Assembly (NCBI GenBank): GCA_963974355.1
Contig: CAXBDS010000003.1
Span: forward strand, 8,299 to 72,298
Direction: 5' to 3'
Source of the DNA: an uncultured Opitutaceae bacterium
GTDB lineage: Bacteria > Verrucomicrobiota > Verrucomicrobiia > Opitutales > Opitutaceae
Length of the DNA stretch: 64,000 nucleotides
A program made the translations under genes and the position numbers. How positions within the stretch are numbered: position 1 is the stretch's first letter; every line of letters begins with the position of its first letter. Below the pieces are notes generated by a model. That model had not been told where the DNA came from, ran no database searches, and saw only the letters and a program-made list of their open reading frames with translations. This document shows positions 29,359-52,355 of this stretch, piece after piece.

Positions 29359-29912
29359 TATTCAGCTTTCGGAGCGCGCCGAATTAGGAAACGGACAAAC
29401 GGTCCGGTGCTGTCCTCCCGTTCCGACTGATCGATCATTCCGGTCTCACCGTAGTATTTCAGGCACCCCTGAATAAGCCCCTTGGCCAAATACTCGAGAT
29501 GGCGTGAGGAGTAGTAGTCGAACCGCAGCAGATCCGGTTCTTCGCGGACCGTGACGAAACGCGGCAATTCCGCGTCCGGATACAGCTTTTTCACCTCCAC
29601 GTGAATGTAGCTTTCGACCGACTCGAGGAACTCAAACGCATCGGATCCGTTGGCAAAAAAACCCGGATAGTGTTGATGGAAAAACGTAAGAAGGTGCTCC
29701 CCAAAACGCTCCAGCAGATCCGCGGCCGGTATGCCCGACGCCTTGCTGAAGGCGGTTAACAGTGTGACCGCTTCGGCATGATCGTAGTTGCCGACCGCCG
29801 TATAGGCTCCGCCCGAAGGCAGATTGGATTCTTCGATGATCGCCTCAACCCGGTCGGGTCCTAACATTTCGTCCGCCATCGTGAGGAGTTCCGTAAAAAC
29901 CATTCCTTTCAT
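29358..29912 (-). CDS. Heme-NO/O2-binding (H-NOX) protein
   Basis: MKGMVF start, GAYTAVGNYDH, proximal His in YIHVEVKKLYP, YxSxR (YYSSR) and GLIQG motifs. Confidence 0.92.
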   Translation of the reverse strand: MKGMVFTELLTMADEMLGPDRVEAIIEESNLPSGGAYTAVGNYDHAEAVTLLTAFSKASGIPAADLLERFGEHLLTFFHQHYPGFFANGSDAFEFLESVESYIHVEVKKLYPDAELPRFVTVREEPDLLRFDYYSSRHLEYLAKGLIQGCLKYYGETGMIDQSEREDSTGPFVRFLIRRAPKAE

Positions 29913-35247: not shown

Positions 35248-36493
35248 CGAAAAATCGCCGAATCCTGCATGTGCCACGTCGTTTTGTAGAACACGAGTGG
35301 GGCGGCACCGAGTCCGTGCTTGCCAACCTGCTGGCCGCGCAACGGCGCCTTGGGTTCGAGCCGGAAATCCATACCTCGCTCGCACTCAGCACGGTGCGAC
35401 GGGAAACCTGGCGCGAGATCGAAGTCAGACGCTATCCCTACGTGTATCCGTTTCTTGGACTTTCGGCGGAGCAGAAGGCGGCGATGGACAAGAAAGGGGG
35501 TAACCTCCTGTCATGGTCCTTGCTGTGGGGCCTTTGGCGCCGGAAACACGTTCGCCTCCTGCACGCTCACGTGCTGAAGCGCCCCGGCGGGGTGGTGCGC
35601 ACGGCGGCGCGCCTTCGGAAACTGCCTTATGTCGTAACCCTTCACGGCGGTATCTTTGATGTGCCGACGGCGGAAATGGCTTCGTTGACGGAAGCCCAAG
35701 CGGGCAAATTTGAGTGGGGCCGTATTGCCGGCGCCTTGCTCGGATCTCGTCGCGTGTTGGAAGACGCCGGGGCGGTGATCTGTGTGGGAAGAAATGAAGC
35801 CGAAAAAGCCCGCGCCAGCCTGGGCCATGATCGGGTTCATCACATCGGCAACGGGGTCGATTGTGCATTCTTTTCCCAAGGCGACGGTGCAGTCTTTAGG
35901 GCACGCCACGAGCTACCACAGAACGCGCGGATCGTTTTGTGTGTCAGTCGCTTTGATCCGCAAAAGGACCAAATGCTGTTGATTCACGCGTTTGACGCCG
36001 TCGCAGACCGCCAACCCGACGTGCACCTCGTGCTCGCGGGGCCGGCGACCCTGGTTGACTACGTTGCTAAAATCGACGCGCGCATCGCAGCCATGCCTCA
36101 AGGATTCGCCGCCTGGGCTCCCTCGCCCCGGGGTCGGTTGAACTGGCCGGCGCGTTCCAAGCGGCGGACATCTTCATGATCGGCTCCCGCCACGAGCCTT
36201 TCGGGATTGTCGTGCTGGAAGCCTGGAGCGCGGGACTCGGCGTAGTGGCGAGCACGGCGGGCGGCTTGGCCGATCTCGTGCGCGGCCAGGAGACGGGCTT
36301 CACATTCCCCCCGGGGGATCAGGTCGCGGCCGCTGCGGCGCTGAACGCGGCGTTGGACAATCGCGAACTGACCCAACGGTGTGCCGCGGCGGGACGCGCG
36401 CGTGCGATCAAAGAATTTTCATGGGAGCGAATCGCGGAGCAGACGGAACACGCCTACCAAGCCGCCGAGACGTGGAATGCCGGCAATGCCTAG
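35244..36493 (+). pseudogene. GT4 glycosyltransferase interrupted by a frameshift near 36085-36095
   Basis: The 35244 frame drifts into non-GT sequence after KIDARIAA. The shifted frame reads RIRRLGSLAPGSVELAGAFQAADIFMIGSRHEPFGIVVLEAW (EX7E) to a stop at 36493. Could be a sequencing error. Confidence 0.8.
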
Positions 36494-37955: not shown

Positions 37956-38324
37956 ATGCCCGATCACGATCAAAATCAGACCGTAAACTGGGTTCAATTG
38001 AGCGAGTTGATCGGAGACGAAGACGATCAGTCCCAACGTGAGCTGCTCGGCGAAATGTGGCGCGACATGGTTAAGGATGTTCACGCTGGCTGGAATCAGG
38101 TTGACTCGCAGGCCGACCCTCAGGAGCTGAAACGCGACCTACATCGAATTCGCGGCCTAATCTCGATGTGGGGGGTCGACGCGCTGGCCCAAATACTCCT
38201 GGCCATCGAGCATGATCCCGATCCTGTAAATGCGTCGGCCCGCCAAGCGGCAAACATCGGCACGCTTTGGGCCGAGACTCGCGGAGGCATCGAACAGCGA
38301 TACCCATGGTTGGCGGCGATGTGA
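37956..38324 (+). CDS. Stand-alone Hpt phosphotransfer protein
   Basis: About 120 aa, helical, with LKRDLHRIRGLISMWG matching the Hpt H-x-x-K/R-G motif. Confidence 0.72.
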   Translation: MPDHDQNQTVNWVQLSELIGDEDDQSQRELLGEMWRDMVKDVHAGWNQVDSQADPQELKRDLHRIRGLISMWGVDALAQILLAIEHDPDPVNASARQAANIGTLWAETRGGIEQRYPWLAAM

Positions 38325-38766: not shown

Positions 38767-40650
38767 ATGAATCTGCGCGATGCTAAAAGACGATCTCTAG
38801 GCGAGGGATTGTTGGCCGCATTCGTCTGCTTAGCAATCGCCGGTGCCGCTCTGGTGATCGTCTATCGCGAGGCCCAGGTAGCATTGATCGGGAACATCCG
38901 CCAGCGCCTCGAAGACCTTGCCGCGATCAGTGCGGAAACGATGGATGCGGCGCTCCACGAGACCCTGAGCGATCCTGCTCAGATGGGTTCGGCCAGCTAT
39001 CATGAAGCGGTGGAGCCGCTCCTGCATCTGCGGCAAACCGTGCCCGAGATTTTTTATGCCTACACCACGGTGATCAATGAAGGCAAAGTCACCTTCGTTC
39101 TGGACACATCTTACTATCTCAAAAACGCGGGCGATGAAACGGCCGTGGCCGGCCTGGGGGAAGTTTACGACGAAGCTCCGATGGAATTGCTGGAGGCCGG
39201 GCAAAGCGGCCGAGTGGTGTCGAGCAGCGAAGCCTACACCGACAAGTGGGGCACGTTTCTTAGCGGATACGCTCCGATCAAAGACGCGGTCTCGGGCGAG
39301 GTGATCGCCGTCGTAGGAGTCGATCTGTCGCTGGCGGATTTCAAGCTCCGGGAACGTCCGCTCATCTGGGCGTTGATCTCCGCAGCCGGATTGAGCATCC
39401 TCGGCGGAGCAGCGGCCGGGATCACCCGATATCGTTCAAGCCTGCGGCGATCGATCGTGGCGATCGAATTGGAACAGGCCCGCGAAAGAGCGGAAATAGC
39501 CGCTGAAACCGCGCGCGCGGCCGACCGGGCAAAAAGCACTTTTCTGGCGACGATGAGTCACGAAATCCGCACGCCGATGAATGGCGTGCTCGGCACCGCG
39601 GAGCTGCTCAGCTACACCGCGTTGAGTGAAGAACAGGCGGAACACGTCAGCGCCATCCGCGGTTCGGCTGAATCCCTGCTGCGGGTGTTAAACGACATTC
39701 TCGACTACTCTAAAATCGAAGCAGGCGCGATGGAGGTTCATCTTGAAGAAATCGACGTCGCGCGATGTATTGACGATTCGATTACATTGTTCCGCGCCGA
39801 GGCGCAACGAAAGGGGCTTGAACTGAGTGTGGAACGAGTCGCGGGCGCGCCGGCGACGGCGATGGCCGACCCGGGACGACTGGGCCAAATTCTCGCAAAC
39901 CTGGTGAGCAACGCGGTTAAATTTTCGGAGCACGGTTCGGTGCAGATCTCAACCACCGCCAATCAGTTGAATGGCCGCACCGCCGTGGCGATCACCGTGG
40001 TCGACACCGGAGTCGGTATTCCGCCAGATCAGATTCACTATGTCGGCAGCGCCTTTCGACAACTCGATGACTCGTCGACCCGGCGCCAAGGCGGCACGGG
40101 CCTGGGGCTCGCGATTTCGTGGCGCTTGGCTAAGTTGATGGGCGCCACGCTTGACGTCGAAAGCACTGTGGGCAAAGGCAGCACGTTTCGACTGCTTCTG
40201 GTCGCCGGCACGGGCGGGGTCACGGAAAAGATTTCTTCGGAACCGACAACGAGGCGGTCCGTTCCGGACCGGCGGAGCGTCCTCGTGGCCGAGGATATCG
40301 CGGGCAATCGCCGCGTAGTCGACCTGCTGTTACGCCGAATCGGTTATCACGCTGCGTTCGCGAACGATGGAGCCGATGCAGTATCGCAGTGGCGGGAGAA
40401 GGGGCCTGACGTGATCTTCATGGATGTGCAGATGCCGCAGATGGACGGCTGCGAAGCAACGCGCGCCATCCGCCGAGAAGCGAACCATCCCACGCGACCG
40501 TGGATTATCGCACTTACGGCCGGAGTTCTCGCCAACGAGCGTGAACTGGCGCTCGCGGCCGGCATGAACGACTTCATCACGAAGCCGATCACTGGAGAGG
40601 TCTTGGCGACGGCGCTGGCACGCGTGCAGCTCCCGCCAACCGCGCAGTAA
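38767..40650 (+). CDS. Membrane hybrid histidine kinase with periplasmic Cache-like sensor
   Basis: TM, then YTDKWGTFLSGYAPIKD, then TM; SHEIRTPMN, NLVSNAVKF, GTGLGL and REC FMDVQMP. Confidence 0.92.
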   Translation: MNLRDAKRRSLGEGLLAAFVCLAIAGAALVIVYREAQVALIGNIRQRLEDLAAISAETMDAALHETLSDPAQMGSASYHEAVEPLLHLRQTVPEIFYAYTTVINEGKVTFVLDTSYYLKNAGDETAVAGLGEVYDEAPMELLEAGQSGRVVSSSEAYTDKWGTFLSGYAPIKDAVSGEVIAVVGVDLSLADFKLRERPLIWALISAAGLSILGGAAAGITRYRSSLRRSIVAIELEQARERAEIAAETARAADRAKSTFLATMSHEIRTPMNGVLGTAELLSYTALSEEQAEHVSAIRGSAESLLRVLNDILDYSKIEAGAMEVHLEEIDVARCIDDSITLFRAEAQRKGLELSVERVAGAPATAMADPGRLGQILANLVSNAVKFSEHGSVQISTTANQLNGRTAVAITVVDTGVGIPPDQIHYVGSAFRQLDDSSTRRQGGTGLGLAISWRLAKLMGATLDVESTVGKGSTFRLLLVAGTGGVTEKISSEPTTRRSVPDRRSVLVAEDIAGNRRVVDLLLRRIGYHAAFANDGADAVSQWREKGPDVIFMDVQMPQMDGCEATRAIRREANHPTRPWIIALTAGVLANERELALAAGMNDFITKPITGEVLATALARVQLPPTAQ

Positions 40651-41829
40651 CTAATCCCCTCCGCCGGAGGCCGCTCGGTCGCAGGCGGCTCGCATCACCC
40701 GATAAATCTGTTCGATGCGTTCGGGCGGTTCATCGACCGGATGACTCGTGAGCCAACACGCGCGCGAATTGGGCAAATCAGGATCGAATCCATGCATGCC
40801 CGGCACCCGACGTTGATTCATAAACGAAGGGGCGAAAATCACGCCTTCATTGAGCAGATAAAAGAGTTCTCCGTAGCGACGATCAGGGAACAGGCATCCC
40901 CAGCGCTTGAGCTCGTCGTCCGTGACGATTCGACCTTCGTTTCGTTGGCTGAGCCAGGCCTCAATCCGACTCCGCACGGACTGACCTCCAGGAAACCAGA
41001 AGCGAACCATCGTCGAGTCCCAGGCGGCAGCATAGTCTTTACCGTAACGCAGACCAAGCGCGTCGAAGTCCACCATCATGCGACTACAGCTCCGGGTGTC
41101 GGCCATGCCGTGATCGCTGAACACATGCCACCGCACCTCCGCATAGTGCGCGATCGCGATTGCGTTCAGCTCCCGCAACCACGTCTCGAGTCGCCCGAAC
41201 GCCGCGTCGACGGCTGCGCCGTTCGTCGTATGCGCATGCATGGTGGCGTCGAGTCCCGCGTTGAAAAGATAGGCCAAGCGAATTTCACCAGCCCGCAAGT
41301 CGCGCGCCAACGCCTCGATATTGGCCGGATCACCCGCTCGCCAATCAGACCGCACCCAAGGCAGACCCGATGCTTTCCAGTGTTCAAAAATGGCGGGTTG
41401 TCCCCCCATGATTCCGCCAGGTTCGTAGAGGTCACGTTTCTCGGTATAGTCCAGCTGGGGCAGGCGCTTGAAAGGTGTGCTATAGAGCTGAAAATATCCC
41501 GTATAGCCCTGTCGGCGCGCGACCCATCGACTGATCCGATTGCGCACCCGGTGGTGCGCCGCGACAGTTTCCGGCAGCCAGCTCAACCACCGCGCCCAGC
41601 GAAAGGGTGAGCGCGGTGGATCGTAGGCGAAAAACGAAAAATGCCCGTGTTGATATGGCAGGGTGCCGGTAAGGATGCTCGGATCGCAGGTGCAGGAGTA
41701 ACCGAACAACGTGTCGCAAGGCTGACGATACGGCAGAAGATCCGAGAGGAACTGACGACGTTGGGCCAGTTCCCAACCGAGGGCATCGACGAAGACGAAG
41801 AGATCGATTGACGGGGTGAGAGGTTTCAT
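40651..41829 (-). CDS. Alkaline phosphatase superfamily (NPP/phosphodiesterase-like) protein, no signal peptide
   Basis: FVDALG, GYSCTCDPSILTG, LDATMH, FSDHGM and GMHG metal-binding motifs. Confidence 0.8.
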   Translation of the reverse strand: MKPLTPSIDLFVFVDALGWELAQRRQFLSDLLPYRQPCDTLFGYSCTCDPSILTGTLPYQHGHFSFFAYDPPRSPFRWARWLSWLPETVAAHHRVRNRISRWVARRQGYTGYFQLYSTPFKRLPQLDYTEKRDLYEPGGIMGGQPAIFEHWKASGLPWVRSDWRAGDPANIEALARDLRAGEIRLAYLFNAGLDATMHAHTTNGAAVDAAFGRLETWLRELNAIAIAHYAEVRWHVFSDHGMADTRSCSRMMVDFDALGLRYGKDYAAAWDSTMVRFWFPGGQSVRSRIEAWLSQRNEGRIVTDDELKRWGCLFPDRRYGELFYLLNEGVIFAPSFMNQRRVPGMHGFDPDLPNSRACWLTSHPVDEPPERIEQIYRVMRAACDRAASGGGD

Positions 41830-42458
41830 CGCTGGGCGAGGGAGCGCTCAATCCGCTTGCGCAGCCGGGCAGGGAAGCGGAGGTCGCTCTCCTGGTTCCA
41901 AATCAGATCGGCATGCCGACGAGAGGGCTCGACATAACGCTCATGACCCGGTCGGGCCGCCGAAGCGTAACGAGAAATGACCTCAGCGACCGAATATCCG
42001 CGCTCCGTCGTGTCTCTTTGAATACGACGGATCAGTCGGAGATCAGCCGGCGTATGGACGAAGATTTTGAGGTCGAGCACGCGGCGCAGTTTCGCATCGG
42101 CGAGCACAAACAGTCCTTCGATCACCACCACCGAGGCCGGAGGCACGAGCGTGGTTTTCCTCGCCCGACGGTAACGGGCGAAATCGTAGTGCGGCATGGC
42201 GACCTCGTTGCCGCGGCGCAGGGAACGAACCTGTTTGAGGAGGAGCGAGGTCTCGAATGCCGCCGGGCAATCAAAGTCGATTTTCCGTCGCGCCGCGGCC
42301 GTGAGGGTGGGATGGTCGCGATAGTAGCAATCATGCGACAAGATCACGCAGCGTTCCGCCCCGAGCTCCCCCGCCAACTGGGCGGCCAAACGGCTCTTGC
42401 CCGAGGCGGTGCCTCCGGCAATCCCCACCACCAGAAGAGGACTCGCGGCGCTTTTCAC
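41826..42458 (-). CDS. udk: Uridine/cytidine kinase family protein (Tyr-type, predicted cytidine-preferring)
   Basis: GIAGGTASGKS, HDCYY, YDFARY, VIEG, RLIRRIQRD...ERG and YVEPS...ADLI motifs. Confidence 0.88.
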   Translation of the reverse strand: MKSAASPLLVVGIAGGTASGKSRLAAQLAGELGAERCVILSHDCYYRDHPTLTAAARRKIDFDCPAAFETSLLLKQVRSLRRGNEVAMPHYDFARYRRARKTTLVPPASVVVIEGLFVLADAKLRRVLDLKIFVHTPADLRLIRRIQRDTTERGYSVAEVISRYASAARPGHERYVEPSRRHADLIWNQESDLRFPARLRKRIERSLAQR

Positions 42459-42844
42459 TCGGTGGGGTGCGCCGCGAGCAATTCGCGCACGCGCGCGGCC
42501 AGTTGGGCGGGGCTGAAAGGTTTGCGAAAGAACGCCTGCACGCCAAGCGCCCGTCCCTCGGCTTCGATATGGGTTTCGCCCGCACCAGTGAGGAAAATGA
42601 TCGGGAGCAGGCGGTGGGCCGAATCTTGTCGAATCTCAGCCACCGCCGTGAGGCCGTCGACGTCCTTCATGTGCACGTCAAAAATGCCCAGCGCGACCGG
42701 TCGGGTCCGGATAATTTCCAACGCATCCAGGCCGCTGGTTGCGGTGATGATGGTCGCATCGATCGTGCGAAGGGTGAAGCCGACCAAACGCAGCATATGC
42801 GGTTCGTCGTCGACGATAAGGATGGTGGGGAGCTGCTTGGTCAT
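42455..42844 (-). CDS. Single-domain response regulator (REC)
   Basis: ILIVDDE, IFDVHM, FLTG and RKPF motifs; ATGA overlaps on both sides. Confidence 0.9.
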   Translation of the reverse strand: MTKQLPTILIVDDEPHMLRLVGFTLRTIDATIITATSGLDALEIIRTRPVALGIFDVHMKDVDGLTAVAEIRQDSAHRLLPIIFLTGAGETHIEAEGRALGVQAFFRKPFSPAQLAARVRELLAAHPTE

Positions 42845-44559
42845 CGGCAAAGAGAGGCCACCAACACGGTGCGGTCGTCGGCGATCGTGGCGGGGTCGAG
42901 TTTCAGCGCAATTGGATCCAGCAGGGCGGCGATGAACTCCGGCGGATTCAGTTCGAAACGGGATACCGCGAACTTCAGATAGATTTCCGGTCCGAGCATC
43001 AGCTCTCCATCGGGGCCGGGCAGTTCGTAACAACCATCGGTGTAAAGGACGAGTCGATCCCCCGTATCCATCGGTAAAGGCAATGCCTCATACTGGGTGT
43101 CGGGGAGGATCCCGAGTGGCACGTTTCCACCGCTAGGTTCAATGAAACGTCCATCCGGGCGAAGAATGGCGGGAGCGCAGTGCCCGGCATTCGAGAAGCT
43201 CGGGAGCGCCCCCGGCGTCGGCGGTAGAATCACCAAAATCGCGGTGATGAACATTCCGAGGCGCACGAGATCGGGAAATAATTGGCGGTTGAGGTCGCTT
43301 AGAATTACACTCGGAGACGATTCCACGGCTGAGAGGGCCCGCAACGAGCTTCGTAGCATGGCCGCAAGCAAAGCTGCGGGCACGCCTTTGCCCATCACGT
43401 CCGCCACGAGCACCATCAGCGTGCCATCATGCAAGGTCACCACATCGAAGTAGTCTCCGCCAACCTCCCGCGCCGGGCGACATTCGCCGTGAACCCACCA
43501 CCGCTCGGGGGGCGGAAAAACATCCGGCAGCAACGAGCGTTGGATACCGGACGCGACCTTGATCTCCTGTTCGAGGCGAAGCTGCTGATTACGTTCCTGC
43601 CAAAGGTTGTCCGTCGCTTTCGCGATGCCCACAAAGTCCGCCACGGCTTGGAGCAACTCCACCTCGCCACCAGAAAACGACTGCCGTTGCGCGCCGCGCA
43701 CCACCACCAGCGTCCCTAGTGTCTTGCCTCCAAACTCCACCGGCAGGACGCACAGATGACACGTATTGGCCATGGCGGCGAGAGGGTCGCCATCGGGGAG
43801 CCGATCAACGCCGCCAACCAGTGGGCGACCATCACGCACGCAGACACTCTCCGCAAAATCGCCTGACAACGGGAGCTCGGCCGGCAGGCCGATATCCAAA
43901 CCGAGCGCGTGAAGTTGCAAGGTGTCGCCGACGGTAAATCGCACAAACAGCGAATCGTGCAGGAGCATCGTCTCCAACCGCTCCCGGACCTGAGCCAGCA
44001 GCTGGTCAAAGGTCGAGCTGGTGGCGAGCAGGCCGGTGAAATGAGTCAGGCAAAGCAGCGTCTCAAAGCTGTTGGCCAAATCCTCCGTCAGGCGACCCAT
44101 GTCGTTTTCGGCGTCGGCGGCGGATTCGATACTCATGCCCGGCTGCCGCTCCACGTTCCAGCGGAGAGTCAAAGTGTGGCCGCCATCCGTATTGGAATGC
44201 TCCCAGCCGTCGGTGTTGGAATCGATAATGAAACCACCTCGGCCTCCTTCGGCGAGCGGATCTTCGGGCAGCTCAGCCCAGTTCGCCGGAGGCTGAAAAT
44301 TGCCGGGATCGCAGACCGTGACAACGACGTGATCCGACGCGACCCGCACCGAAAGCTGCACGGTCGTTTCCGGGTTTCCGGCGCAACCATGTTCGATCGC
44401 ATTGTTAACCGCCTCCACCAAGGGCAGCTCGATTCCGGAAAGTTTCTTTGCATCGACCCCGTGGATACGGCACCAGGCCAGCACACGCTTCACGGCCGGC
44501 CGGATCGACGTGAGACGCGGGGGAAGGGCGAGCTGCAACGCCTCGTCGAGTTCGTTCAT
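42841..44559 (-). CDS. RsbW-type Ser kinase / GAF-like / SpoIIE (PP2C) phosphatase fusion
   Basis: EAVNNAIEHG, CDPG and EGGRG (HATPase_c_2); central GAF-like region; VGGDYFD, VADVMGKG, YTDG and DDRT (PP2C). Confidence 0.9.
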   Translation of the reverse strand: MNELDEALQLALPPRLTSIRPAVKRVLAWCRIHGVDAKKLSGIELPLVEAVNNAIEHGCAGNPETTVQLSVRVASDHVVVTVCDPGNFQPPANWAELPEDPLAEGGRGGFIIDSNTDGWEHSNTDGGHTLTLRWNVERQPGMSIESAADAENDMGRLTEDLANSFETLLCLTHFTGLLATSSTFDQLLAQVRERLETMLLHDSLFVRFTVGDTLQLHALGLDIGLPAELPLSGDFAESVCVRDGRPLVGGVDRLPDGDPLAAMANTCHLCVLPVEFGGKTLGTLVVVRGAQRQSFSGGEVELLQAVADFVGIAKATDNLWQERNQQLRLEQEIKVASGIQRSLLPDVFPPPERWWVHGECRPAREVGGDYFDVVTLHDGTLMVLVADVMGKGVPAALLAAMLRSSLRALSAVESSPSVILSDLNRQLFPDLVRLGMFITAILVILPPTPGALPSFSNAGHCAPAILRPDGRFIEPSGGNVPLGILPDTQYEALPLPMDTGDRLVLYTDGCYELPGPDGELMLGPEIYLKFAVSRFELNPPEFIAALLDPIALKLDPATIADDRTVLVASLCR

Positions 44560-45761
44560 GGCGCGGGATGAGTCAGGCAAAGTTTAAGCAAGGAACGCCG
44601 GACCAGGCGGTCATTTTGCGGCAAGGCGGCTTGGTAAAGCGCGTGGGCCAACTCGTCGGGTTCCTCCGGCGTATGCGAACCGTGAAGATCGGCGAGCGAG
44701 AAAACGCCCGGCGGTGTGTGTGCGAGCAGCGTCCGCGTTTCCTCGGGGACCTGCGGAGCTATTTCACTCCGGGGTAAAATCCCGACCAACCTAAGGCGAC
44801 CCGCGACCACCGCGCCGAGCCAGCGAGCTCGGCGGGCCAGCAACGAACCTCGAGACCCCGTGCTCAAACGAAGCGTTCCGCCTCCCGGCAGTAAAACCTC
44901 CCGTGATATCGCCGCCCCCGCACCCAACGCCAAGAGTTGCGCCGGCAACCAGAGCAGCAGCGCCCACGCGCGTTCCCGCATCGGGGTAGACTGCGGCTGC
45001 TGCTGCATCGCAGCCGCGATAAAATCGTCGGTCAGGTCGGCCCGACCTCCGCTCATCGGGTCGAGCAACGTGGCCCCCAGTAACAGCTTATTGTGCACAT
45101 CCAAATGCGCGCCCACGAAGGTGCCTCCCGCGACCAAAGCATGTTGCAAATGGACATCGGAGCTGAGGACGCAGCCGGGCCCAACCAATGCACCGGGTCC
45201 GATCGTGCAGCCCGACTCGATCAAGGTGCCGGCCCCGATCCAATACGGCGGCACCAGCTTAATGCCGGGGGCCAGCGTGACGCGCGGACCGAGCCAGCCT
45301 TGCGGCTCGCGCTGCGTATCGAGATGAACACGTTCCGGATCACGCTTCGCCAGCCAAGCGAGGTTGAGCGCAAGCCACCATCGCACCAACGATGCGCCGT
45401 CCATCGGCGAGGCGTCGCCGGGATCGCATGCCGGCATGCGATCCATCATCTCGGCAACCAGGCCCAGCGGCGGCGACACGGGCAGTAGGCTGAGTTCTAC
45501 GGACCAATAGGCGCCGCCTTCGAGGGCCGCCCGCACCGCCGCCGGACGGTCCGGGCAATAGAGGGTGACCTGCTTGCAGCCCTGCTGCACAGCATGGTCA
45601 AGCCAGTGGGCGGCCAGCGATTGATTTCCGACTTCCCACAAAATAGGCGGGAGATCACGACGCGCTAGCGAATCGAGCACGCTCCAATCCGGCGCGACGA
45701 GCACCAATGCGGGCGCAGGCGATGAGGCGACCGCGACATCTGCGGAGGCAGTCGAACTCAC
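44556..45761 (-). CDS. Degenerate NTP-transferase + left-handed beta-helix + degenerate sugar-transferase fusion
   Basis: PILWEVGNQSLAAHWLDHA, hexapeptide repeats (WIGAGTLIESGCTIGPGALVGPGCVL), C-terminal VVAGRLRLVGILPR; GTGA start overlap inferred. Confidence 0.65.
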   Translation of the reverse strand: MSSTASADVAVASSPAPALVLVAPDWSVLDSLARRDLPPILWEVGNQSLAAHWLDHAVQQGCKQVTLYCPDRPAAVRAALEGGAYWSVELSLLPVSPPLGLVAEMMDRMPACDPGDASPMDGASLVRWWLALNLAWLAKRDPERVHLDTQREPQGWLGPRVTLAPGIKLVPPYWIGAGTLIESGCTIGPGALVGPGCVLSSDVHLQHALVAGGTFVGAHLDVHNKLLLGATLLDPMSGGRADLTDDFIAAAMQQQPQSTPMRERAWALLLWLPAQLLALGAGAAISREVLLPGGGTLRLSTGSRGSLLARRARWLGAVVAGRLRLVGILPRSEIAPQVPEETRTLLAHTPPGVFSLADLHGSHTPEEPDELAHALYQAALPQNDRLVRRSLLKLCLTHPAP

Positions 45762-46474
45762 ATCGCGCCTTTCCCCAGCAACACCGCTGGCACCGTCATC
45801 ACGAGTAACTTGAGATCCAGCCACACGCTGGAGGATTGGATATAGGCCACGTCGAGCCGGACCTGACCGGCGAAGTCGATGTCACTGCGTCCGCCAACTT
45901 GCCAGAAGCAGGTAAGGCCCGGTTGGGCCAGCAGACGCTGGCGATCCTCCGGCGTATAGAGCGCCACTTCGCGCGGCACGGGCGGTCGCGGCCCGACCAA
46001 GGACATATCACCGCGAAACACATTCCAAAACTGCGGAAGCTCATCGATGGAGAATTTGCGAATGAATTTCCCCACGCGAGTGATACGCGGGTCATCCTTC
46101 ATCTTGAAGGTGACACCGCCCTGCATCTGATTTTGCGCAAGCAGCTTGTCCTTCACTTGGTCGGCGTTAGGAATCATCGAGCGGAATTTCCACATCTTGA
46201 ACAGGCGCCCGCGGTAACCGACGCGTTGTTGCCCGAAGAACAGAGCGCCGGGTCCTTCCAGTCGAATGGCGAGAGACGTGGCGGCAAAGATGGGCGTGAG
46301 CGCGACGAGCGCGCAAAACGAGACCACCAGATCCAGCGCCCGCTTCAGCACGCGGGTGGCGCCGAGGGTGATGTTCCACAGCCACCGTTTACGCGAGGCA
46401 CGCCAACGCAGCCGGGCGCGGCCAAGCGGCGTGCCGGCGTGGCTCCAATAGGCAACGATGTCCTTTTCAGTCAT
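45758..46474 (-). CDS. Priming phosphoglycosyl transferase (Bac_transf / sugar transferase)
   Basis: KRALDL, RVGYRGRLFKMWKFRSM, DDPRITRVGKFIRKFSIDELPQ and MSLVGPRP motifs. Confidence 0.95.
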   Translation of the reverse strand: MTEKDIVAYWSHAGTPLGRARLRWRASRKRWLWNITLGATRVLKRALDLVVSFCALVALTPIFAATSLAIRLEGPGALFFGQQRVGYRGRLFKMWKFRSMIPNADQVKDKLLAQNQMQGGVTFKMKDDPRITRVGKFIRKFSIDELPQFWNVFRGDMSLVGPRPPVPREVALYTPEDRQRLLAQPGLTCFWQVGGRSDIDFAGQVRLDVAYIQSSSVWLDLKLLVMTVPAVLLGKGAM

Positions 46475-47679
46475 GCGGAGTCGGATTCGGCGTTCGCGAG
46501 GGGCGTTTCAGCGACCGCCAGTCCGCCCAAGGTGCGTGTGAGTCGCTCGAGATAGTCCTCAAAGTCGTAGTGTTTGTTCACATACGTTCGGCCTTGGGCG
46601 CCAAGGCGGCGAGCCAACGATTTGTCGGCCAGCAAACCATCGATCGCCCGTGCAAATGCCGGCACATCACCCCATGGCACCAACCGGCCGGTTTCGCCAT
46701 CGTGCAACCAATCCGGGATGCCACCGGCATCGAACGCCACCACGGGCAGTCCGTAACGCATCACTTCAAGCCCGATCGTGGCGATGGGCTCGGGCCAGAC
46801 TGAGGAAACCGCCACCACGGAAGCATCCCGGTAATAGCCCTTCAATTCCTCTTGGGGAATGAAACCGGGGAAACGCACCCGATCCTGCAGCCCGAGTTCA
46901 CGACAGAGCTTTTCGCAAGCCGCCTGATGATTGCCTGAGCCAAGAATCACCGCTTCAAATGGACGCTCGAGGCGGGCGAGGGCGCGGAGCAGTAGATCCA
47001 CGCCTTTACCGCGGATGATTTGGCCTGCGTAAAGAATAAGATTTCGCTCGGAAAAGCTCGATTCGAGCGGATCTCCCGGACGCGGCACCGGCGGGAAGAT
47101 TTCGATTTTTTCAGACGCGAAGCCGTTGATCTCGAGCTCGTGCTGCATGTAGTGCGTGACCACAAACATTCGGTCAAAACGCCGGGTGAGTGCCAGCTCC
47201 CTGAGCTTGTCGAAGTAAGACACCCACTTGATCGGGAAACCGCCGGAGCGGTCACGCTTAATCGGGGCGAGGCAGGGGAAAACGCAATAGCCGGAGGCCG
47301 GTCGATGGCATACTTTGCGGGTCAACGGATGGTAACGATAGCTCCGCAAACAATAGATGTCGTGGTCGTGCACCATACGGGCAAGCGGAAGGTCCGATTC
47401 GACCAATGCCTCCAACGTCGGCAGATGATCCCACTTATGCACGTAGGCGACCTGGGGCGAAAATCGAGTGCGCACCGTAGCGAGGTCACATTCCGCTTCG
47501 TAGAAGACATGTTCACCGAACAGCGCCCGCCACTTTTCCTCGCCCTTTCCCGTGGCTCGGCGAGTCCAGAGCCCCACGGTGACCCCGCGTCGTTGAAGCT
47601 CGGTGGCTGTGATCAGCACATTAGCCTCGGCGCCGCCCAGGTTTCCGAATGACTCATGAACATAGAGCAGGCGGAACAT
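46471..47679 (-). CDS. GT4 glycosyltransferase
   Basis: GGAE, YAGQIIRGKG and WPEPIATIGLEVM (EX7E) motifs. Confidence 0.92.
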   Translation of the reverse strand: MFRLLYVHESFGNLGGAEANVLITATELQRRGVTVGLWTRRATGKGEEKWRALFGEHVFYEAECDLATVRTRFSPQVAYVHKWDHLPTLEALVESDLPLARMVHDHDIYCLRSYRYHPLTRKVCHRPASGYCVFPCLAPIKRDRSGGFPIKWVSYFDKLRELALTRRFDRMFVVTHYMQHELEINGFASEKIEIFPPVPRPGDPLESSFSERNLILYAGQIIRGKGVDLLLRALARLERPFEAVILGSGNHQAACEKLCRELGLQDRVRFPGFIPQEELKGYYRDASVVAVSSVWPEPIATIGLEVMRYGLPVVAFDAGGIPDWLHDGETGRLVPWGDVPAFARAIDGLLADKSLARRLGAQGRTYVNKHYDFEDYLERLTRTLGGLAVAETPLANAESDSA

Positions 47680-47787: not shown

Positions 47788-48102
47788 ATGAGTCTCGTAA
47801 TTCAGACAGCGCTCACTGACGGTTGCCTCAAAGTTGTCCCCACGGTGTCGCGACTGGACGCGGCGGTCGCCCGTGACTTCAAAGCGGAAATTGAGAAAGC
47901 GTGGACCGCCGGGGTTTCGTCCGTGGAAATCGATATGACGGCCGTCGAGTTCGTCGACAGTTCGGGCGTCGGGGCACTGTTAAGCGTGTATCGCAAACTT
48001 CCGCCGGGGGCAGGCGTGACCCGCCTCGTCGGCATTCGTCCCGGCGTGCTCGCGGTGCTGGAGCTGCTCCGCCTCCATCGCGTATTCGAACTGGGCAACT
48101 AA
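47788..48102 (+). CDS. STAS anti-sigma-factor antagonist (SpoIIAA/RsbV-like)
   Basis: RLDAAVA, IDMTAVEFVDSSGVGALL and VLELLRLHRVF motifs. Confidence 0.9.
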   Translation: MSLVIQTALTDGCLKVVPTVSRLDAAVARDFKAEIEKAWTAGVSSVEIDMTAVEFVDSSGVGALLSVYRKLPPGAGVTRLVGIRPGVLAVLELLRLHRVFELGN

Positions 48103-48103: not shown

Positions 48104-49228
48104 ATGATGTCGCCCGCGGATTCAGGGCGCTATTTCGTCGATGACGAACCGGCTTTGGCCGCGAAGTTGGATCAATTTCTGTCGACTTTGGCGACCGATC
48201 TCGGCGCTCAACCGTGGCGCGAAGATGTCGCTGCGTTGGTTTTGGCCGGCGGATACGGTCGCGGTGAGGGAGGCGTTTTCCGCGCGAGCGAAAAGGCTGA
48301 AGCAGACCTCTACAACGACCTCGAATTTTTCCTCTTTTTGAAAAGCGGTGCCTCCACCCCGCCAGCCGCGGCGTGGTGCGAGCGATGGGAACGGGATGGC
48401 ACCGTCAAGTTGGGGATCGACGTCGAGTTCAAGCGGGATGCCGCCACCGGGCTGCAGCACGGTGCCCCGACGATGTTTTTGTATGACTTATTGCAGGGGC
48501 ATCGCGTCATTTGGGGGGATCCCGGTTGTCTCGCGCGTGCTCCGGCGCGTTTGCGTGATCCTGCCGCAATCCCGGCGGAAGAAGCGACTCGACTGCTTTT
48601 CAATCGTGGCAGCGGGTTGTGGTTTGCCCAAATGAAATTGGCCGCCGATGCGATCGACGAACTCGGTTTCGTTGAGCGAAACCAGCAAAAAGCGAAGTTG
48701 GCGATGGGCGATGCGGTGTTGGCGTTGAGCGGCCGGCATCACGCTATGTGCGAGGAACGCGACCGACGCATCGCAAGCGGCGGGTTCGCCACCCCGCCGG
48801 ACTGGGCCAAGTTGGTCGCATGGCACGACGAAGGCACGGCGTTCAAACTGCGTCCCCGCCATCGGGCGACCGGACTCGAACACCTCAAAGCGAGCCAGAC
48901 CGCATTGGTCGCGGCATGGTTGAAAACGTTTTTATGGGTGGAAGGGCGACGTCTGGACCACGTCTTTACTCAACCGCTCGATTACGTGGCCTGGGACCGT
49001 CGCTTATTTCCCAACCGTGCTCGTTGGCGCAACGTCGCGGTGCATGCGCGTGATCGATTCAAACGCGGCGAAATGTTGCGCGCGGTCACTGACTATCCGC
49101 GAGCCACATTGCAACGCGCGTTGGTCGCCGCGTTGGTCGATGGCACCGCGGCGGGAGCCCGTTGCATGGGGGTAACGGCCACTGATTTCGACACCACTTA
49201 CGCCCGCTGGTGGGCACGCTACAACTAG
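48104..49228 (+). CDS. Pol-beta superfamily nucleotidyltransferase-like protein of unknown function
   Basis: LVLAGGYGRGEG followed by YNDLEF and DVEF acidic motifs, then a helical domain; 1 nt after the STAS stop. Confidence 0.6.
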   Translation: MMSPADSGRYFVDDEPALAAKLDQFLSTLATDLGAQPWREDVAALVLAGGYGRGEGGVFRASEKAEADLYNDLEFFLFLKSGASTPPAAAWCERWERDGTVKLGIDVEFKRDAATGLQHGAPTMFLYDLLQGHRVIWGDPGCLARAPARLRDPAAIPAEEATRLLFNRGSGLWFAQMKLAADAIDELGFVERNQQKAKLAMGDAVLALSGRHHAMCEERDRRIASGGFATPPDWAKLVAWHDEGTAFKLRPRHRATGLEHLKASQTALVAAWLKTFLWVEGRRLDHVFTQPLDYVAWDRRLFPNRARWRNVAVHARDRFKRGEMLRAVTDYPRATLQRALVAALVDGTAAGARCMGVTATDFDTTYARWWARYN

Positions 49229-49278: not shown

Positions 49279-51228
49279 CTAACCCTTGGGGTCGGTCGCT
49301 GGATTCTGTTGCAGCCAAGCATGCGCACGGAGCAAGGCGTCAACGAGATCCTTCGCGCGCAGAGGCTTGGCCAAATAGTCCTGCATGCCACTGGAACGGG
49401 CGGCAGTATGGTGCTCGATCAGCACATTCGCGGTCAGTGCGATGATGTAGGGGTGGTTCTCACAACCGGGGCGTTCGCGAATGCGGCGGGTCGCTTCGAG
49501 ACCGTCGATCCCTGGCATTTGAAGATCCATTAGCACGACATCGTATTTTTCTTGGGCAGTCGCATCGATCGCCTCCTGACCGTTGTCCACCGATGTCCCG
49601 TGATAACCCAGTCGATTCAGATAAAGGAGGATGACTTTGCGGTTCACTGCGATGTCTTCCACGACCAATACCCGCAATGGGTGGAGTCGGGCAAAATCCT
49701 TATCGACCTGTTTGGTCGGCGCGGACTTCACGACCGCCGCGGGCAGCGAGGTAAACAGGCCTCCAAGCACCTGCAACAGCTCGCTCGGTTTGACGGGCTT
49801 CGTCAGTCGGCGGTGAATCAAGTTGCCCGCCTCATCCGATTCGATCCCGCGTGAGGAGAGCAACACCATGGGCGGAAGATCCGGGCCATGGCGTTTCGCC
49901 AATTCACACGCGAGCGCCGCGCCGCTCATTTCCGGCATATTGAAATCGAGGACGACCAAATCAAATGGGGCGGCGGAAGCGTAACGCTCAAGAGCCTCGG
50001 AAGGAGAAGCCACGAGATCGACGTTCAGCCCCCAACCGGAAAGTTGTTGGTCAAGGATGCGCCGATTGATCGCGATATCATCCACCACGAGCACCCGACG
50101 CCCCTGCAACGCGCTCGGGTCAGGCGTGGTCCCGATTTCATCCAGCGGGCATTCCCGGGCGAGAATATGAAAACGGAAACAACTGCCTTCGCCCGGTCGA
50201 CTTGTCACATCAATCGTTCCACCGAGGAGGCCGACGAGACGATCGGTGATCGCGAGTCCCAATCCGGAACCGCCGAACTTCCGGGTGGTGGAGCTATCGA
50301 CCTGACTGAAGGCTTTAAAGAGGCGATCAATCCGCTCCCGAGGAATGCCTACGCCCGTATCTTCGACGCGGAATTCGATTTTCCAGAGGTCGTTGATTTG
50401 CTCGGCCGCGACAAAAATCCCGACCCCGCCTTCGCCGGTAAATTTCAACGCATTCCCGACCAGATTGATCATGATCTGACGTAGCCGCGTCGGGTCGGTG
50501 AACACATGTTGAGGCACCGACGGCGCGAATGAGGTGCCCAGATCCAGACCCGCTTTTGTCGCACTCTCGGAAAACAGATCCAAGACTTGCTCCACGGAAG
50601 AAACGAGGTCGCACGGAATCGTTTCCACCTCAAGATGTCCGGCCTCGATCTTCGAAAAATCGAGGATGTCGTTGATCGTATCGAGCAGGGTGTCGCCGCC
50701 TTGCCGGATGAGTTCGACGTATTCGTGGTGAGCTTTGTCGAGTGGCGCATCGAGCAGCATGCTGGTCATCCCGATGATGGCATTGAGCGGCGTGCGAATC
50801 TCGTGACTCATATTGGCGACGAACTCGCTCTTCGCCCGATTGGCATTGTCGGCGGCGTCCTTCGCGGTGCGCAGCGCCGTCTCCGTTTCCTGCCGTTCCG
50901 CCACCAGACGTTCGATCTCTTCGGTAAGGTGAAGCATATCCTGATCGCTCGTGGAAATCGTCGCTTCGGGATGCAGTCGATTCACGGTTTGGCGGAGCCG
51001 CACGAGGATCTGTTCGTTACTTTGGTTTTGCTCAAGCAGCGAAGCGTTTGCCGCGCTCAGTTCCCGGGAACTCATCTCCATCACGTGATCGCTCAATCGC
51101 CGGTCTTGGTCGAACTGCGTGTAGGAGGCCGACACACGTTCAAGCAATTCCGCCACCCCCGCAGGCAGGTTCTCGGGTGATCCCAATGAGCGCTTGACCT
51201 GTCGCAGCAACAGGGGATGCAAGCTCAT
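49279..51228 (-). CDS. Cytoplasmic hybrid histidine kinase with two REC domains, FIST-associated
   Basis: [11 protein letters not shown]-terminus, [25 protein letters not shown], RECs VLDFNMP and LMDLQMP; ATGA overlap with the FIST gene. Confidence 0.93.
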
Positions 51229-52355
51229 GCGAGTTCCTCGGCGAGGCTGGTTATCGTCATCGTCTGGTTGTGCAACTGACACGCATGCTCATGACCGGAA
51301 GGGGCGAGTTCGCCATAAGAATAAAAGCCCGTGAGCACGGGCGTCTGCCCAAAGATAGAACGCACGCCCTCGAGTTCCTCCTCGGTCCGTTCCCCCAGAA
51401 CTACCCGACGTCCCACGCAACTCACGCAGATGACCAATTCGGACGCTTGCACCGCCTGCCGCGCCGCCTCTTCGGCTCCATTCACGAGCTCTTCATAAGA
51501 CGCTCGCATAAAACGAACCGAAGCCCCCTTCGGAATGTCCCCTGCAAAGGTCATCGTGCCAGCGTCATCATCAATCGACAAGATGGTGCGCACGACGGCC
51601 TTGGTTTGATGGGGTGGCACGACAGAAAGCGGAAAACGTAACGCCGCTGCGGGTAGCGCATCGGCTTCTGGACCGAGATACGCGCGATAGAGTTCAAGCG
51701 CTGGTTGGCCATCGAGTTCGCTCAACACGTTGTTCGCCGACGCCGTGACGGTGCGGGAGGGTCCGAACGTGGACCAACCGCCTGCGCTGCCAAATCCGAG
51801 GCGAAGCGACTCGCCATAAAGTCCCACCGCGACGACCACACCGGTAGTCGGCGGGCTGTCGAGACCGACCAAGGTGCTCGCAAAATCAGTGCCGTCGCCA
51901 GCCAAGCCTCCACTGAGCGTGACCCCCTCGGGCAGACATTGGTTGAAGGCCGCGATCAGCGTGCTACCGTTCACGAGACTACCGTCCGAAAAAACCAAAA
52001 CGTGCCGGAGGTCCGGGGCATTCAATTGCGAACCAAGCAACTGGCAAAGCGTATCCAAATTGGCTCCCGTTTCTAGCCGAGCGGACGCGCAACGCAGTGT
52101 CGCCCGCTCCAAACAAAGGGCCGTGCACACCAGTTGCTCATCTTCGATTCGAATGTCAGCCAAGTTTCCAGCCGTGGACACCATCACCACCCGCGCGTTC
52201 GGAAAACGCTTTCGAACTTCATCAAACAGGGCTGGCTTGGCCAGTGTCGCCCGCAGGCCAAAAACGAGGACGAGGCCGGCGTCCTCCGGGGACAGGTCGC
52301 CGGTAAGGTCAGTCCAGCTGGCTTCGGTCGACAGGAGGGTTTGAAGCAATTTCAT
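51225..52355 (-). CDS. FIST_N/FIST_C domain protein (NosP-like sensor)
   Basis: STAG, FSDG...[38 protein letters not shown] and LHNQTM motifs. Confidence 0.9.

Follow-up and report, generated by a model that had tools for sequence, protein, structure and literature searches.

A single 572-residue protein, here called KGP, combines an RsbW-type serine kinase and a serine phosphatase with a GAF sensor between them; the catalytic motifs of both enzymes are intact. KGP is probably a kinase/phosphatase of the partner-switching type, acting on the STAS domains of its own locus within an exosortase-type exopolysaccharide (EPS) cluster and tuned by its GAF domain and by a receiver (REC) encoded next to it. 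Through phosphorylation of these small STAS domains it would most likely turn the making of slime (exopolysaccharide) on and off. This reading starts from what can be observed directly, namely the domain content, the conserved catalytic and phospho-acceptor residues, the operon coupling and the conserved neighbourhood, in a 64-kb stretch of DNA (the window) and in related loci.

Gene organisation

Positions 42455-44559, in an ORF reading, hold two translationally coupled genes on the minus strand, encoding KGP and REC (Table 1). A single long ORF across this range was ruled out, because its 2105 nt are not a multiple of three and the two genes lie in different frames. The ATG of KGP, at 44559, shares an ATGA with the stop codon of the upstream hexapeptide-repeat gene, and the ATG of REC overlaps the KGP stop in the same manner. 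Genes called independently on an almost identical public scaffold give the same 572- and 129-residue products. Three plus-strand ORFs (41913..42935, 42467..42982 and 43909..44571) were taken as shadow ORFs in this 62% GC DNA, because both minus-strand genes, independently called too, fill the range.

The upstream order of GT4, Bac_transf and hexapeptide genes is kept in related loci, and the phosphodiesterase gene is found 3' of KGP or REC in 10 of them. NCBIfam has no family model for either the hexapeptide protein or the phosphodiesterase. A scan for sigma-54 promoters (TGGCAC-N5-TTGCW, at most two mismatches) gave 26 matches versus 28.9 expected by chance, with none in the divergent intergenic region between the STAS and GT4 genes. 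A look for RNA sequencing runs that could show co-transcription returned just two runs, both of metagenomic DNA.

Table 1. Features of the KGP locus and of its putative partners in the window
Feature	Coordinates	Strand	Evidence
KGP, bifunctional enzyme, 572 aa (RsbW-type Ser kinase, GAF, PP2C/SpoIIE Ser phosphatase)	42841..44559	-	
KGP kinase domain HATPase_c_2, residues 13-134; N-box E49/N53, G1 D84, G2 G106-R107-G108	44158..44523	-	
KGP GAF domain, about residues 184-313	43621..44010	-	Pfam, homologue matches, AF2 pattern
KGP PP2C/SpoIIE phosphatase domain, residues 378-569; metal-binding D369, D372, D387, D508, D561, D562	42853..43428	-	
REC, stand-alone receiver, 129 aa	42455..42844	-	Pfam, sequence reading, neighbourhood
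Uridine-kinase-like PRK, downstream, coupled by 4-nt overlap	41826..42458	-	gene calls, Pfam
Type I phosphodiesterase-family protein, downstream, coupled by 4-nt overlap	40651..41829	-	gene calls, Pfam
GT4 glycosyltransferase, Bac_transf priming transferase and hexapeptide-repeat protein; upstream, same predicted operon	44556..47679	-	
Single-domain STAS protein, 104 aa, Ser58 in FVDSSG	47788..48102	+	Pfam STAS 5.5e-16
Nucleotidyltransferase-fold protein, 374 aa, same predicted operon as STAS	48104..49228	+	
WecG/TagA-type glycosyltransferase with two STAS (FLDSSG, FMDSSG); candidate substrate/effector	58950..60401	-	
Paralogue, degenerate WecG with two intact STAS (FMDSFG, LIDSSG)	57541..58953	-	
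Hpt phosphotransfer protein, 122 aa, His in LHRIRG	37956..38324	+	Pfam Hpt 1.1e-5, gene call, sequence
Hybrid histidine kinase (HisKA-HATPase-REC), N-terminal extracytoplasmic sensor region	38767..40650	+	domain search, gene call
FIST sensor protein (51225..52355), then hybrid kinase (HisKA-HATPase-REC-REC)	49279..52355	-	
H-NOX haem-NO sensor (29358..29912), then hybrid kinase (28003..29358)	28003..29912	-	

A kinase, a sensor and a phosphatase in one chain

Pfam places a HATPase_c_2 domain (E 7e-21) at the N-terminus of KGP, a GAF domain at residues 239-313 (E 3.4e-7; 31.3 bits, for a cut-off of 22.4) in the middle and a SpoIIE/PP2C domain (E 8.5e-40) at the C-terminus. These scores, like that of REC for Response_reg (E 3.6e-21), are far above chance level; NCBIfam gave for KGP only a weak SpoIIE match, far under the cut-off. 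The kinase domain has the N-box LVEAVNNAIEHG, the G1 motif DPG and the G2 motif GGRGG, which are the determinants of the RsbW/SpoIIAB-type Bergerat fold. The phosphatase domain contains the motifs GGDYFD, ADVMGKG, NAGH, YTDG and ADDRT, and has both the fold and the metal-binding aspartates of the SpoIIE family of PPM/PP2C enzymes. The two enzyme activities are predicted from these motifs.

The AF2 model of KGP has a pLDDT of 91.5, and its pTM of 0.61 makes the domain-to-domain arrangement uncertain. In Foldseek searches it matches RsbW/SpoIIAB as well as RssB, Rv1364c, SiaA and SpoIIE, the target-normalised TM-score of the kinase domain being 0.80 with SpoIIAB and 0.87-0.88 with RsbW. Residues 184-296 show in this model the alpha/beta pattern of a GAF domain, in agreement with the size of the region and with its profile score over the curated threshold. 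A 47-residue linker helix (297-343) joins the GAF to the PP2C domain.

A set of 56 homologues, sharing 34-68% identity with KGP, provides further details. E49, N53, G106-R107-G108, D369, D372, D387, G390-K-G392, D508 and D561-D562 are invariant among them, and the G1 residue D84 is at least 90% conserved. The conservation of the N-box, G2 and G1 residues argues that ATP binding and catalysis are retained, and both catalytic centres are intact and under selection. The GAF region has few invariant residues, with a GAF match in 49 of the 56 homologues and a GAF_2 match in 45. The preliminary description had proposed the order kinase-GAF-PP2C with both motif sets intact, followed by REC as the next coupled gene, and these two points are borne out by Pfam, by the motifs, by the homologues and by the ATGA overlap. 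It had also called this REC "split-off", a word that describes the separate gene rather than a demonstrated fission; a fused REC occurs in none of the 56 homologues.

The receiver and its phosphorelay

REC shows the characteristic residues of a receiver, with the acidic pocket D12/D13, the acceptor D56, T86 and K108; the acceptor aspartate and a KPFSP motif are conserved among the receivers adjoining KGP homologues. It is the sole stand-alone receiver in the window, save a distant LuxR-type regulator. Three hybrid kinases and one Hpt protein are also encoded there, and the latter is the presumed phosphate donor to REC. A sigma-54 activator was considered as a second receiver of the relay, in a SypG-like role. 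This was not supported, as the protein has no Response_reg match and its N-terminus, examined by eye, has neither an acidic pocket nor an acceptor aspartate.

STAS domains as candidate substrates

Five phosphorylatable STAS domains are encoded in the window, one forming the 104-residue protein and two being fused to each WecG paralogue. All five display the D-S-x-G phosphorylation motif (FVDSSG, FMDSFG, LIDSSG, FLDSSG, FMDSSG) with Pfam and TIGR00377 matches, and are thereby of the anti-sigma-antagonist kind (SpoIIAA/RsbV/SypA). A sixth STAS domain, in a SulP transporter (4871..6739), is unrelated. The identity of the KGP substrates is suggested by the conserved D-S motif of neighbouring STAS proteins, this pair being invariant in the 20 STAS proteins adjoining KGP homologues. 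The 104-residue STAS protein is the best-supported candidate, and the four WecG-fused domains are plausible ones.

The two WecG paralogues look quite different in their enzymatic part. The protein encoded at 58950..60401 has CDG, ERVAG and PKQEKW aligned to the TagA motifs PDG, ERVAG and PKQEKW, as expected for a WecG/TagA/CpsF member. Its paralogue (57541..58953) has CAS, APFTG and PAIETEW at these positions and falls outside this class; it departs from the conserved residue at 48 of 79 glycosyltransferase columns but retains it at 14 of 19 STAS columns, and it is likely a non-catalytic regulatory subunit, judging from this alignment. The WecG-STAS-STAS family comprises at least 120 clusters. 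D320/S321 and D436/S437 are conserved in it, the D-S pairs of both STAS domains being at least 90% conserved in 54 proteins. This fusion and KGP are found in one cluster in three loci (L004, L090 and L091). The WecG-fused STAS domains co-occur with KGP in Opitutales-type clusters only, whereas the single-domain STAS does so phylum-wide; the link of the fusions to KGP is narrower, because none was seen within 10 kb of Limisphaerales-type KGP loci.

The 374-residue protein encoded in the STAS operon is a candidate output partner of the STAS protein. Searches of Pfam, NCBIfam and PDB sequences gave no match for it, and a PDB profile search found none even at E 10. Its AF2 model (pLDDT 94.3, pTM 0.91) matches in Foldseek the fold of kanamycin nucleotidyltransferase, AadA and MntA, and the motif GGYGRGE...D72xE74 is invariant.

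A conserved neighbourhood

The KGP architecture is not rare: it defines a large uncurated family, mainly from Verrucomicrobiota, with at least 116 full-length clusters at 90% identity. Of 19 KGP-related loci, 16 contain a STAS gene, which in Limisphaerales-type loci is found in the same operon, directly upstream of KGP (L014-L018, L020, L021 and L025). REC is directly 3' of KGP in 13 of the 17 assessable loci. It is not obligatory, because it is absent in three loci (L017, L018 and L019) and displaced 3 kb downstream in a fourth (L013). The related loci are mostly inside exosortase-type EPS clusters. A Burkholderiales MAG retains no more than the genes for STAS, enzyme and REC. Two close relatives, from Opitutus sp. 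and Rariglobus sp. (55-57% identity), are encoded together with their REC but apart from any STAS or EPS gene. Switches of this kind are known, and the KGP-STAS-REC arrangement is a variant of them that is widespread in Verrucomicrobiota.

Comparison with known switches

SypE, HsbR and OsaC were compared with KGP by their described domain layout. The mechanism of KGP most likely resembles that of SypE/SypA or HsbR/HsbA, as judged from this comparison. SypE, from the Vibrio fischeri syp locus, has a REC between its kinase and PP2C domains, and governs the phosphorylation of SypA at a step below syp transcription (PMC3610818). The parallel with this kinase-REC-PP2C protein, drawn at the outset, holds for the domain layout (PMC3610818): in both cases an N-terminal RsbW-like serine kinase and a C-terminal PP2C share one chain, in a polysaccharide locus with a single-domain STAS bearing a phosphorylatable serine. 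Neither has a known sigma target, and the sub-transcriptional action described there is the one proposed here. The syp network also includes hybrid kinases, one of them H-NOX-linked, and a sigma-54 activator (PMC3610818, PMC12369376). However, KGP has a central GAF instead of a central REC, which is encoded here by a separate coupled gene, and it is not a SypE orthologue in this respect, Response_reg being found in neither KGP nor any of the 56 homologues. The sigma-54 activator here has no receiver match, glycosyltransferases carry additional fused STAS domains, and the phylum is different.

HptB, HsbR and HsbA form a relay in Pseudomonas (PMC6482189). In this system, as in CrsR-CrsA from Shewanella, a single STAS protein is under the control of a REC, a PP2C and an RsbW-like kinase. 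The receiver gets its signals from several hybrid kinases through an Hpt, and the outcome is either biofilm formation or motility (PMC6482189, PMC5085249). HsbR and CrsR differ from KGP by their REC-PP2C-kinase order in one chain, without GAF, by STAS outputs that are FlgM and HsbD, and by a kinase domain that sequesters RpoS.

OsaC from Streptomyces coelicolor, studied by Fernandez-Martinez et al. in 2009, reportedly has an RsbW-like kinase, then a sensor (PAS/GAF), then a PP2C. Its PAS and GAF domains are N-terminal to the phosphatase, and a sensor domain connected by a coiled-coil linker to a PPM phosphatase is a general control mechanism (PMC12143880). OsaC differs by its additional PAS, by the lack of a coupled REC and by its action on SigB, outside polysaccharide loci. 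The best match among solved structures is Rv1364c from Mycobacterium tuberculosis (3ke6), whose single chain likewise contains a PP2C and an RsbW-like domain, but in the order PAS-PP2C-kinase-STAS, with the STAS fused to them and a link to SigF. Partner-switching-like control exerted directly on a biosynthetic enzyme has been described in Anabaena PCC 7120, where an RsbW-like kinase, together with a REC-PP2C phosphatase, governs All4160, a glycosyltransferase with a fused STAS (bioRxiv 10.64898/2026.04.08.717354). In this HenR/Alr3423/All4160 system, kinase and phosphatase come as two polypeptides, the second of which carries the REC. All4160 has one N-terminal STAS and is a different kind of transferase, in contrast with the two C-terminal STAS domains of the WecG/TagA-type enzyme.

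Proposed mechanism and alternative readings

The setting would be an exosortase-type EPS cluster in a marine member of the Verrucomicrobiota, probably of the Opitutales, and KGP is the one RsbW-like kinase and the one PP2C phosphatase encoded in the window. The RsbW-like domain of KGP would phosphorylate Ser58 (FVDSSG) of the 104-residue STAS protein, from which the PP2C domain would strip the phosphate, and KGP probably acts too on the four STAS domains of both WecG/TagA-type paralogues. The phosphorylation state of these domains would gate EPS synthesis post-transcriptionally, either directly through the fused glycosyltransferase or via the nucleotidyltransferase-fold protein of the STAS operon, or both. 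Which of the two activities prevails would depend on the GAF domain, whose signal would pass along the long helical linker to the PP2C switch element, and also on REC, which would get its phosphate via Hpt from the three hybrid kinases (H-NOX-paired, FIST-paired and with the extracytoplasmic sensor). The direction in which REC and GAF act, as well as the effect on EPS, are what we infer here. A more elaborate form of this scheme, possible but rather doubtful, makes KGP a hub that gates polysaccharide assembly through the tandem STAS on the WecG/TagA enzyme and its dead paralogue, the free STAS controlling an undescribed nucleotidyltransferase.

The absence of a SigB/F-type (group-3) sigma, claimed in the preliminary description, was confirmed by scanning all called ORFs of the window, so that KGP lacks a co-encoded cognate sigma of this group within 64 kb. 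The only sigma there is of the ECF type (17806..18471), 24 kb from KGP and with its own coupled downstream gene. This counts for little, because RpoS, the sigma sequestered by the related HsbR and CrsR, is encoded away from both (PMC6482189). The kinase domain of KGP could similarly sequester an unlinked sigma, the STAS serving only to release it and the output being transcription. Such a function, compatible with STAS phosphorylation and not exclusive of it, would suit the SpoIIAB/RsbW fold revealed by Foldseek, the action of HsbR, CrsR and OsaC on sigma factors, and the enzyme-REC pairs outside EPS clusters in Opitutus sp. and Rariglobus sp. We nevertheless hold it unlikely: besides the missing group-3 sigma, the KGP gene is embedded in biosynthetic genes with 4-nt overlaps, the glycosyltransferase-fused STAS domains point to direct enzyme control, and no sigma is known to be a target of SypE (PMC3610818, PMC4517449). 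The suggestion that all five STAS domains are the substrates stands in part, since a STAS adjoins the enzyme in most related loci and its phospho-serine is invariant, but the support is unequal, the single-domain STAS alone being phylum-wide.

Two other readings concern the division of labour around KGP. REC may be an output or phosphate sink of the Hpt relay, the GAF alone controlling KGP and the gene coupling reflecting co-expression only. Single-domain receivers are often sinks or diffusible outputs, and 4 of the 17 assessable loci have REC elsewhere or not at all; its translational coupling to KGP in the window, its adjacency in the 13 others across 28-57% identity and the control of the kinase/phosphatase balance by REC in SypE and HsbR (PMC3610818, PMC6482189) make this reading improbable. 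It is more improbable still, and indeed very hard to sustain, that KGP is effectively a phosphatase only, with HATPase_c_2 as a docking or regulatory module for STAS or REC and another kinase phosphorylating the STAS. Partner-switching kinase domains do double as binding modules, but the N-box and G2 conservation in the 56 homologues, with the nearly invariant G1 aspartate, speaks for an active kinase, and a second RsbW-like kinase is not found in the window.

Significance

Verrucomicrobiota are abundant polysaccharide specialists of oceans, lakes and soils. How SypA and similar STAS proteins act on polysaccharide production with no sigma factor involved has been ascribed to an "as-yet unknown mechanism" (PMC4517449), a question dating from 2013. 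The fusion of STAS to a glycosyltransferase and the nucleotidyltransferase-fold protein of the STAS operon provide concrete, testable targets. If KGP were the hub considered above, this would be a case of sigma-independent partner switching with three STAS output classes in one locus, and would reveal what SypA-like STAS proteins act on. The locus would also be an independent second case of STAS-glycosyltransferase control, in a phylum and an enzyme class other than those of the cyanobacterial example, and a large protein family of the Verrucomicrobiota that lacks annotation would gain a function.

Gene Organization and Domain Architecture

The segment 42455-44559 is 2105 nt long, which is no multiple of three, and contains two minus-strand genes (Table), coding for the kinase-GAF-PP2C enzyme and for a separate receiver (REC). 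Identical products are called on a near-identical public marine-metagenome scaffold. Pfam assigns residues 13-134 of the enzyme to HATPase_c_2 (7e-21), 239-313 to GAF (3.4e-7, exceeding the curated cut-off) and 378-569 to SpoIIE/PP2C (8.5e-40), and the second product to the receiver family (3.6e-21). Kinase motifs (LVEAVNNAIEHG, DPG, GGRGG), PP2C motifs (GGDYFD, ADVMGKG, NAGH, YTDG, ADDRT) and the REC residues D12/D13, D56, T86 and K108 can be read in the sequences. The AlphaFold2 model of the enzyme, computed from 56 homologues, has a per-residue pLDDT of 91.5, domain packing being less certain (pTM 0.61). The model runs from an alpha/beta kinase domain (7-135) by way of a long helix (144-180), a GAF-sized alpha/beta domain (184-296) and a 47-residue linker helix (297-343) to the PP2C domain. 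Foldseek matches are SpoIIAB (TMt 0.80) and RsbW (TMt 0.87-0.88) for the N-terminal region, and P. aeruginosa RssB, Rv1364c, SiaA and SpoIIE for the C-terminal one. Every particular of the chain and coupled REC gene in the preliminary description is thus confirmed by gene structure, Pfam, motifs, AlphaFold2 and Foldseek.

Table. Coordinates of the features discussed.
Feature	Position	Strand	Remarks
SulP transporter	4871..6739		includes a STAS domain
ECF sigma factor	17806..18471	+	
ECF sigma factor and downstream gene	17806-19265	+	downstream product 265 aa
H-NOX gene and hybrid histidine kinase gene (start)	28003-29912	-	overlapping; polysaccharide cluster edge
GT4 glycosyltransferase, apparently split	35244-36493	+	35244..36179 (N-terminal domain); 36176..36493 (C-terminal end), overlapping
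Type I phosphodiesterase / nucleotide pyrophosphatase family	40651-41829	-	
Uridine-kinase-like PRK	41826-42458	-	
REC	42455..42844	-	129 aa; ATG overlaps enzyme stop (ATGA)
Enzyme	42841..44559	-	572 aa; ATG at 44559 overlaps hexapeptide-repeat TGA (ATGA)
Hexapeptide-repeat protein	44556-45824	-	422 aa, intact
Single-domain STAS protein	47788..48102	+	104 aa
374-aa protein	48104-49228	+	same operon as STAS gene
WecG/TagA-type fusion	57541..58953	-	two STAS domains
WecG/TagA-type fusion	58950..60401	-	two STAS domains
Sigma-54 activator	61743-63149	-	
DUF4114-domain gene	63269-64000	+	cut by window end

The enzyme gene belongs to a seven-gene minus-strand run, in the order GT4 glycosyltransferase, Bac_transf priming transferase, hexapeptide-repeat protein, enzyme, REC, PRK and phosphodiesterase. 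The ATGA overlaps are the junctions read, flanking the enzyme and REC genes; the others are 4-nt overlaps, or 67 nt at Bac_transf/hexapeptide if the longest ORF is used. The STAS and 374-aa genes are transcribed divergently from this run. The wider locus encodes Wza-like and Wzz-like export proteins, more glycosyltransferases, a flippase-like protein, the sigma-54 activator, an Hpt protein and three hybrid histidine kinases; an H-NOX (heme-NO binding) protein precedes one of these kinases and a FIST protein another.

Several neighbors show features of their own. By eye, the hexapeptide-repeat protein extends C-terminally past the left-handed beta-helix region and has a hydrophobic stretch; its gene is frameshifted in the near-identical public scaffold L001 (8726-10001), which differs by a 47-nt indel, through either strain variation or an assembly difference. 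The same scaffold is broken at the site of the split plus-strand GT4 gene; the split stems from a frameshift/pseudogene or from an assembly error. In two relatives (L009, L090), exosortase EpsH/EpsI genes come after the DUF4114 gene, so the polysaccharide cluster is probably of the exosortase (PEP-CTERM) type and extends past 64000.

A Conserved Family and Neighborhood

A protein search with the enzyme gave 1654 matches, at a cut-off that also lets in single-domain ones. All of the best 120 except four fragments are proteins of 563-738 residues with HATPase_c_2 and SpoIIE, their named sources being Opitutus, Opitutaceae, Synoicihabitans, Chthoniobacteraceae, Verrucomicrobiota and one Burkholderiales MAG. 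Whole-protein matches in species-representative genomes come nearly throughout from Verrucomicrobiota (such as Rariglobus, Opitutaceae, Spartobacteria, Limisphaerales, Pedosphaera), weaker and longer ones from Chloroflexia, Omnitrophota and Armatimonadota MAGs. The family has no NCBIfam model, and a literature search found no paper on it. Among 56 members (34-68% identity), the kinase centre (E49, N53, G106-R-G108) and the PP2C centre (G367-G-D369, D372, D387, G390-K-G392, D508-G509, D561-D562) are invariant, in keeping with the earlier statement that both motif sets are intact in one chain. GAF profiles match 49 of them and none has a fused receiver.

Across 19 independent related loci, a single-domain STAS gene is present in 16; those without are L019 and the Opitutus sp. 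and Rariglobus sp. loci, where the enzyme-REC pair stands alone, outside any exopolysaccharide (EPS) cluster. REC lies directly downstream of the enzyme in 13 of 17 assessable loci, is 3 kb off in one and missing from three. In receivers encoded next to the enzyme, both the acceptor Asp and a KPFSP motif are conserved, and 20 STAS proteins neighboring enzyme homologues all have the D-S pair. Two layouts are seen. The Opitutales-type repeats that of the window, with Wzz-like and two Wza genes, the divergent 374-aa and STAS genes, then GT4, Bac_transf, hexapeptide, enzyme, REC and phosphodiesterase. In the Limisphaerales-type, the operon carries one or two STAS genes immediately 5' of the enzyme gene; tandem single-domain genes in L014 (9261-9944) and L015 (9194-9923) echo the STAS-STAS part fused to WecG in the Opitutales-type. 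The Burkholderiales MAG retains only the divergent STAS, enzyme and REC. The phosphodiesterase, a cytoplasmic protein, is encoded after the enzyme or REC in 10 related loci, a linkage nearly as tight as that of STAS, and the PRK gene also recurs in related clusters.

STAS Domains and Their Candidate Partners

When every called ORF of the window was compared with Pfam, exactly five anti-sigma-antagonist-type STAS domains were found, in the single-domain protein and the two adjacent WecG/TagA-type fusions, all five with the D-S-x-G phosphorylation motif; the SulP domain is irrelevant here. The only sigma factor is of the ECF type, 24 kb from the enzyme, and its downstream gene (4-nt overlap, no Pfam match) presumably encodes an anti-sigma factor. 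Neither a SigB/F-type sigma nor a second RsbW-like kinase or PP2C phosphatase occurs among these ORFs. Both the count of five and the absence of a SigB/SigF-type sigma, as first described, are therefore borne out.

The WecG-STAS-STAS proteins form a large family (at least 120 clusters, about 485 residues), and 13 of their contigs among those listed match enzyme-homologue contigs in nucleotide count. In three related loci (L004, L090, L091) the fusion gene precedes the enzyme gene by 8-10 kb within one cluster, adjoining sigma-54 activator and exosortase EpsH/EpsI genes; each has one copy within the sequence covered, versus two in the window. D320 and D436 are invariant in 54 members, S321 and S437 at least 90% conserved. 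The paralogue at 58950..60401 keeps the motifs aligned to TagA PDG, ERVAG and PKQEKW. The other has lost them, with 48 of 79 conserved glycosyltransferase columns changed, and retains 14 of 19 conserved STAS columns, both D-S pairs included. These alignments make a pseudo-enzyme with regulatory function likely, and its retained phosphosites argue that the fused STAS domains carry a selected regulatory function.

The 374-aa protein has no match in Pfam, NCBIfam or PDB sequences; its named homologues, among about 700, are all "hypothetical". Its confident AlphaFold2 model (pLDDT 94.3, pTM 0.91) matches the fold of kanamycin nucleotidyltransferase, AadA and MntA, and a GGYGRGE...DxE motif is invariant. 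Its gene adjoins the STAS gene in every Opitutales-type locus, which makes the protein a candidate output partner of STAS.

Proposed Mechanism and Alternatives

We propose that the enzyme sets the phosphorylation state of Ser58 in the STAS protein, and probably also that of the WecG-fused STAS domains, the active form being the unphosphorylated one by analogy with SypA and All4160. The GAF domain would control the enzyme by way of the linker helix. Control of the PPM switch element by a dimeric coiled-coil linker is general among sensor-PPM phosphatases, GAF types included (PMC12143880). A second input would come from the hybrid kinases, through Hpt, to the coupled REC; receiver phosphorylation favors phosphatase activity in SypE and HsbR (PMC3610818, PMC6482189). 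EPS assembly would thereby come under post-translational control, exerted on the WecG enzyme itself, in the way suggested for the Anabaena STAS-glycosyltransferase All4160 (bioRxiv 10.64898/2026.04.08.717354), through the 374-aa protein, or both. Beyond the presence and conservation of residues, we infer each of these steps.

Chief among the alternatives is a kinase domain that in addition sequesters a sigma factor whose gene lies at another site, as in CrsR and HsbR with RpoS (PMC6482189). The missing sigma gene is therefore weak evidence against it; the Opitutus and Rariglobus pairs would also fit an unlinked sigma. That the enzyme acts as a phosphatase only is unlikely, because its ATP-binding motifs are invariant. 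REC might serve as output or sink and not as input.

Relation to Known Systems

The system would function like SypE/SypA and HsbR/HsbA. The regulatory gene set strikingly parallels the V. fischeri syp network, which includes HnoX-HahK (PMC12369376), a pair resembled by the H-NOX/hybrid kinase genes here. The sigma-54 activator differs from SypG: its TIGR02915 (PEP-CTERM-box response regulator) match is below cut-off and limited to AAA+ and HTH, and its N-terminal 150 residues have no receiver match, nor, by eye, an acidic pocket or acceptor Asp; the L090 homologue likewise lacks a receiver match. Orthology of the enzyme with SypE was rejected because the defining central receiver is absent. 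OsaC has the same domain order as the enzyme, kinase part included. Its GAF and PAS domains are confirmed (PMC12143880).

The enzyme alone would be no great surprise to a specialist. What is new is an architecture centred on GAF, with the receiver on a gene of its own that is coupled to the enzyme's, as a family found across the phylum Verrucomicrobiota, together with its fixed place within exosortase-type EPS clusters, the WecG-type transferases bearing tandem STAS domains, degenerate paralogue included, and a STAS protein paired with one of nucleotidyltransferase fold. For the targets of SypA-like STAS proteins, sought for a long time, the locus supplies concrete candidates.
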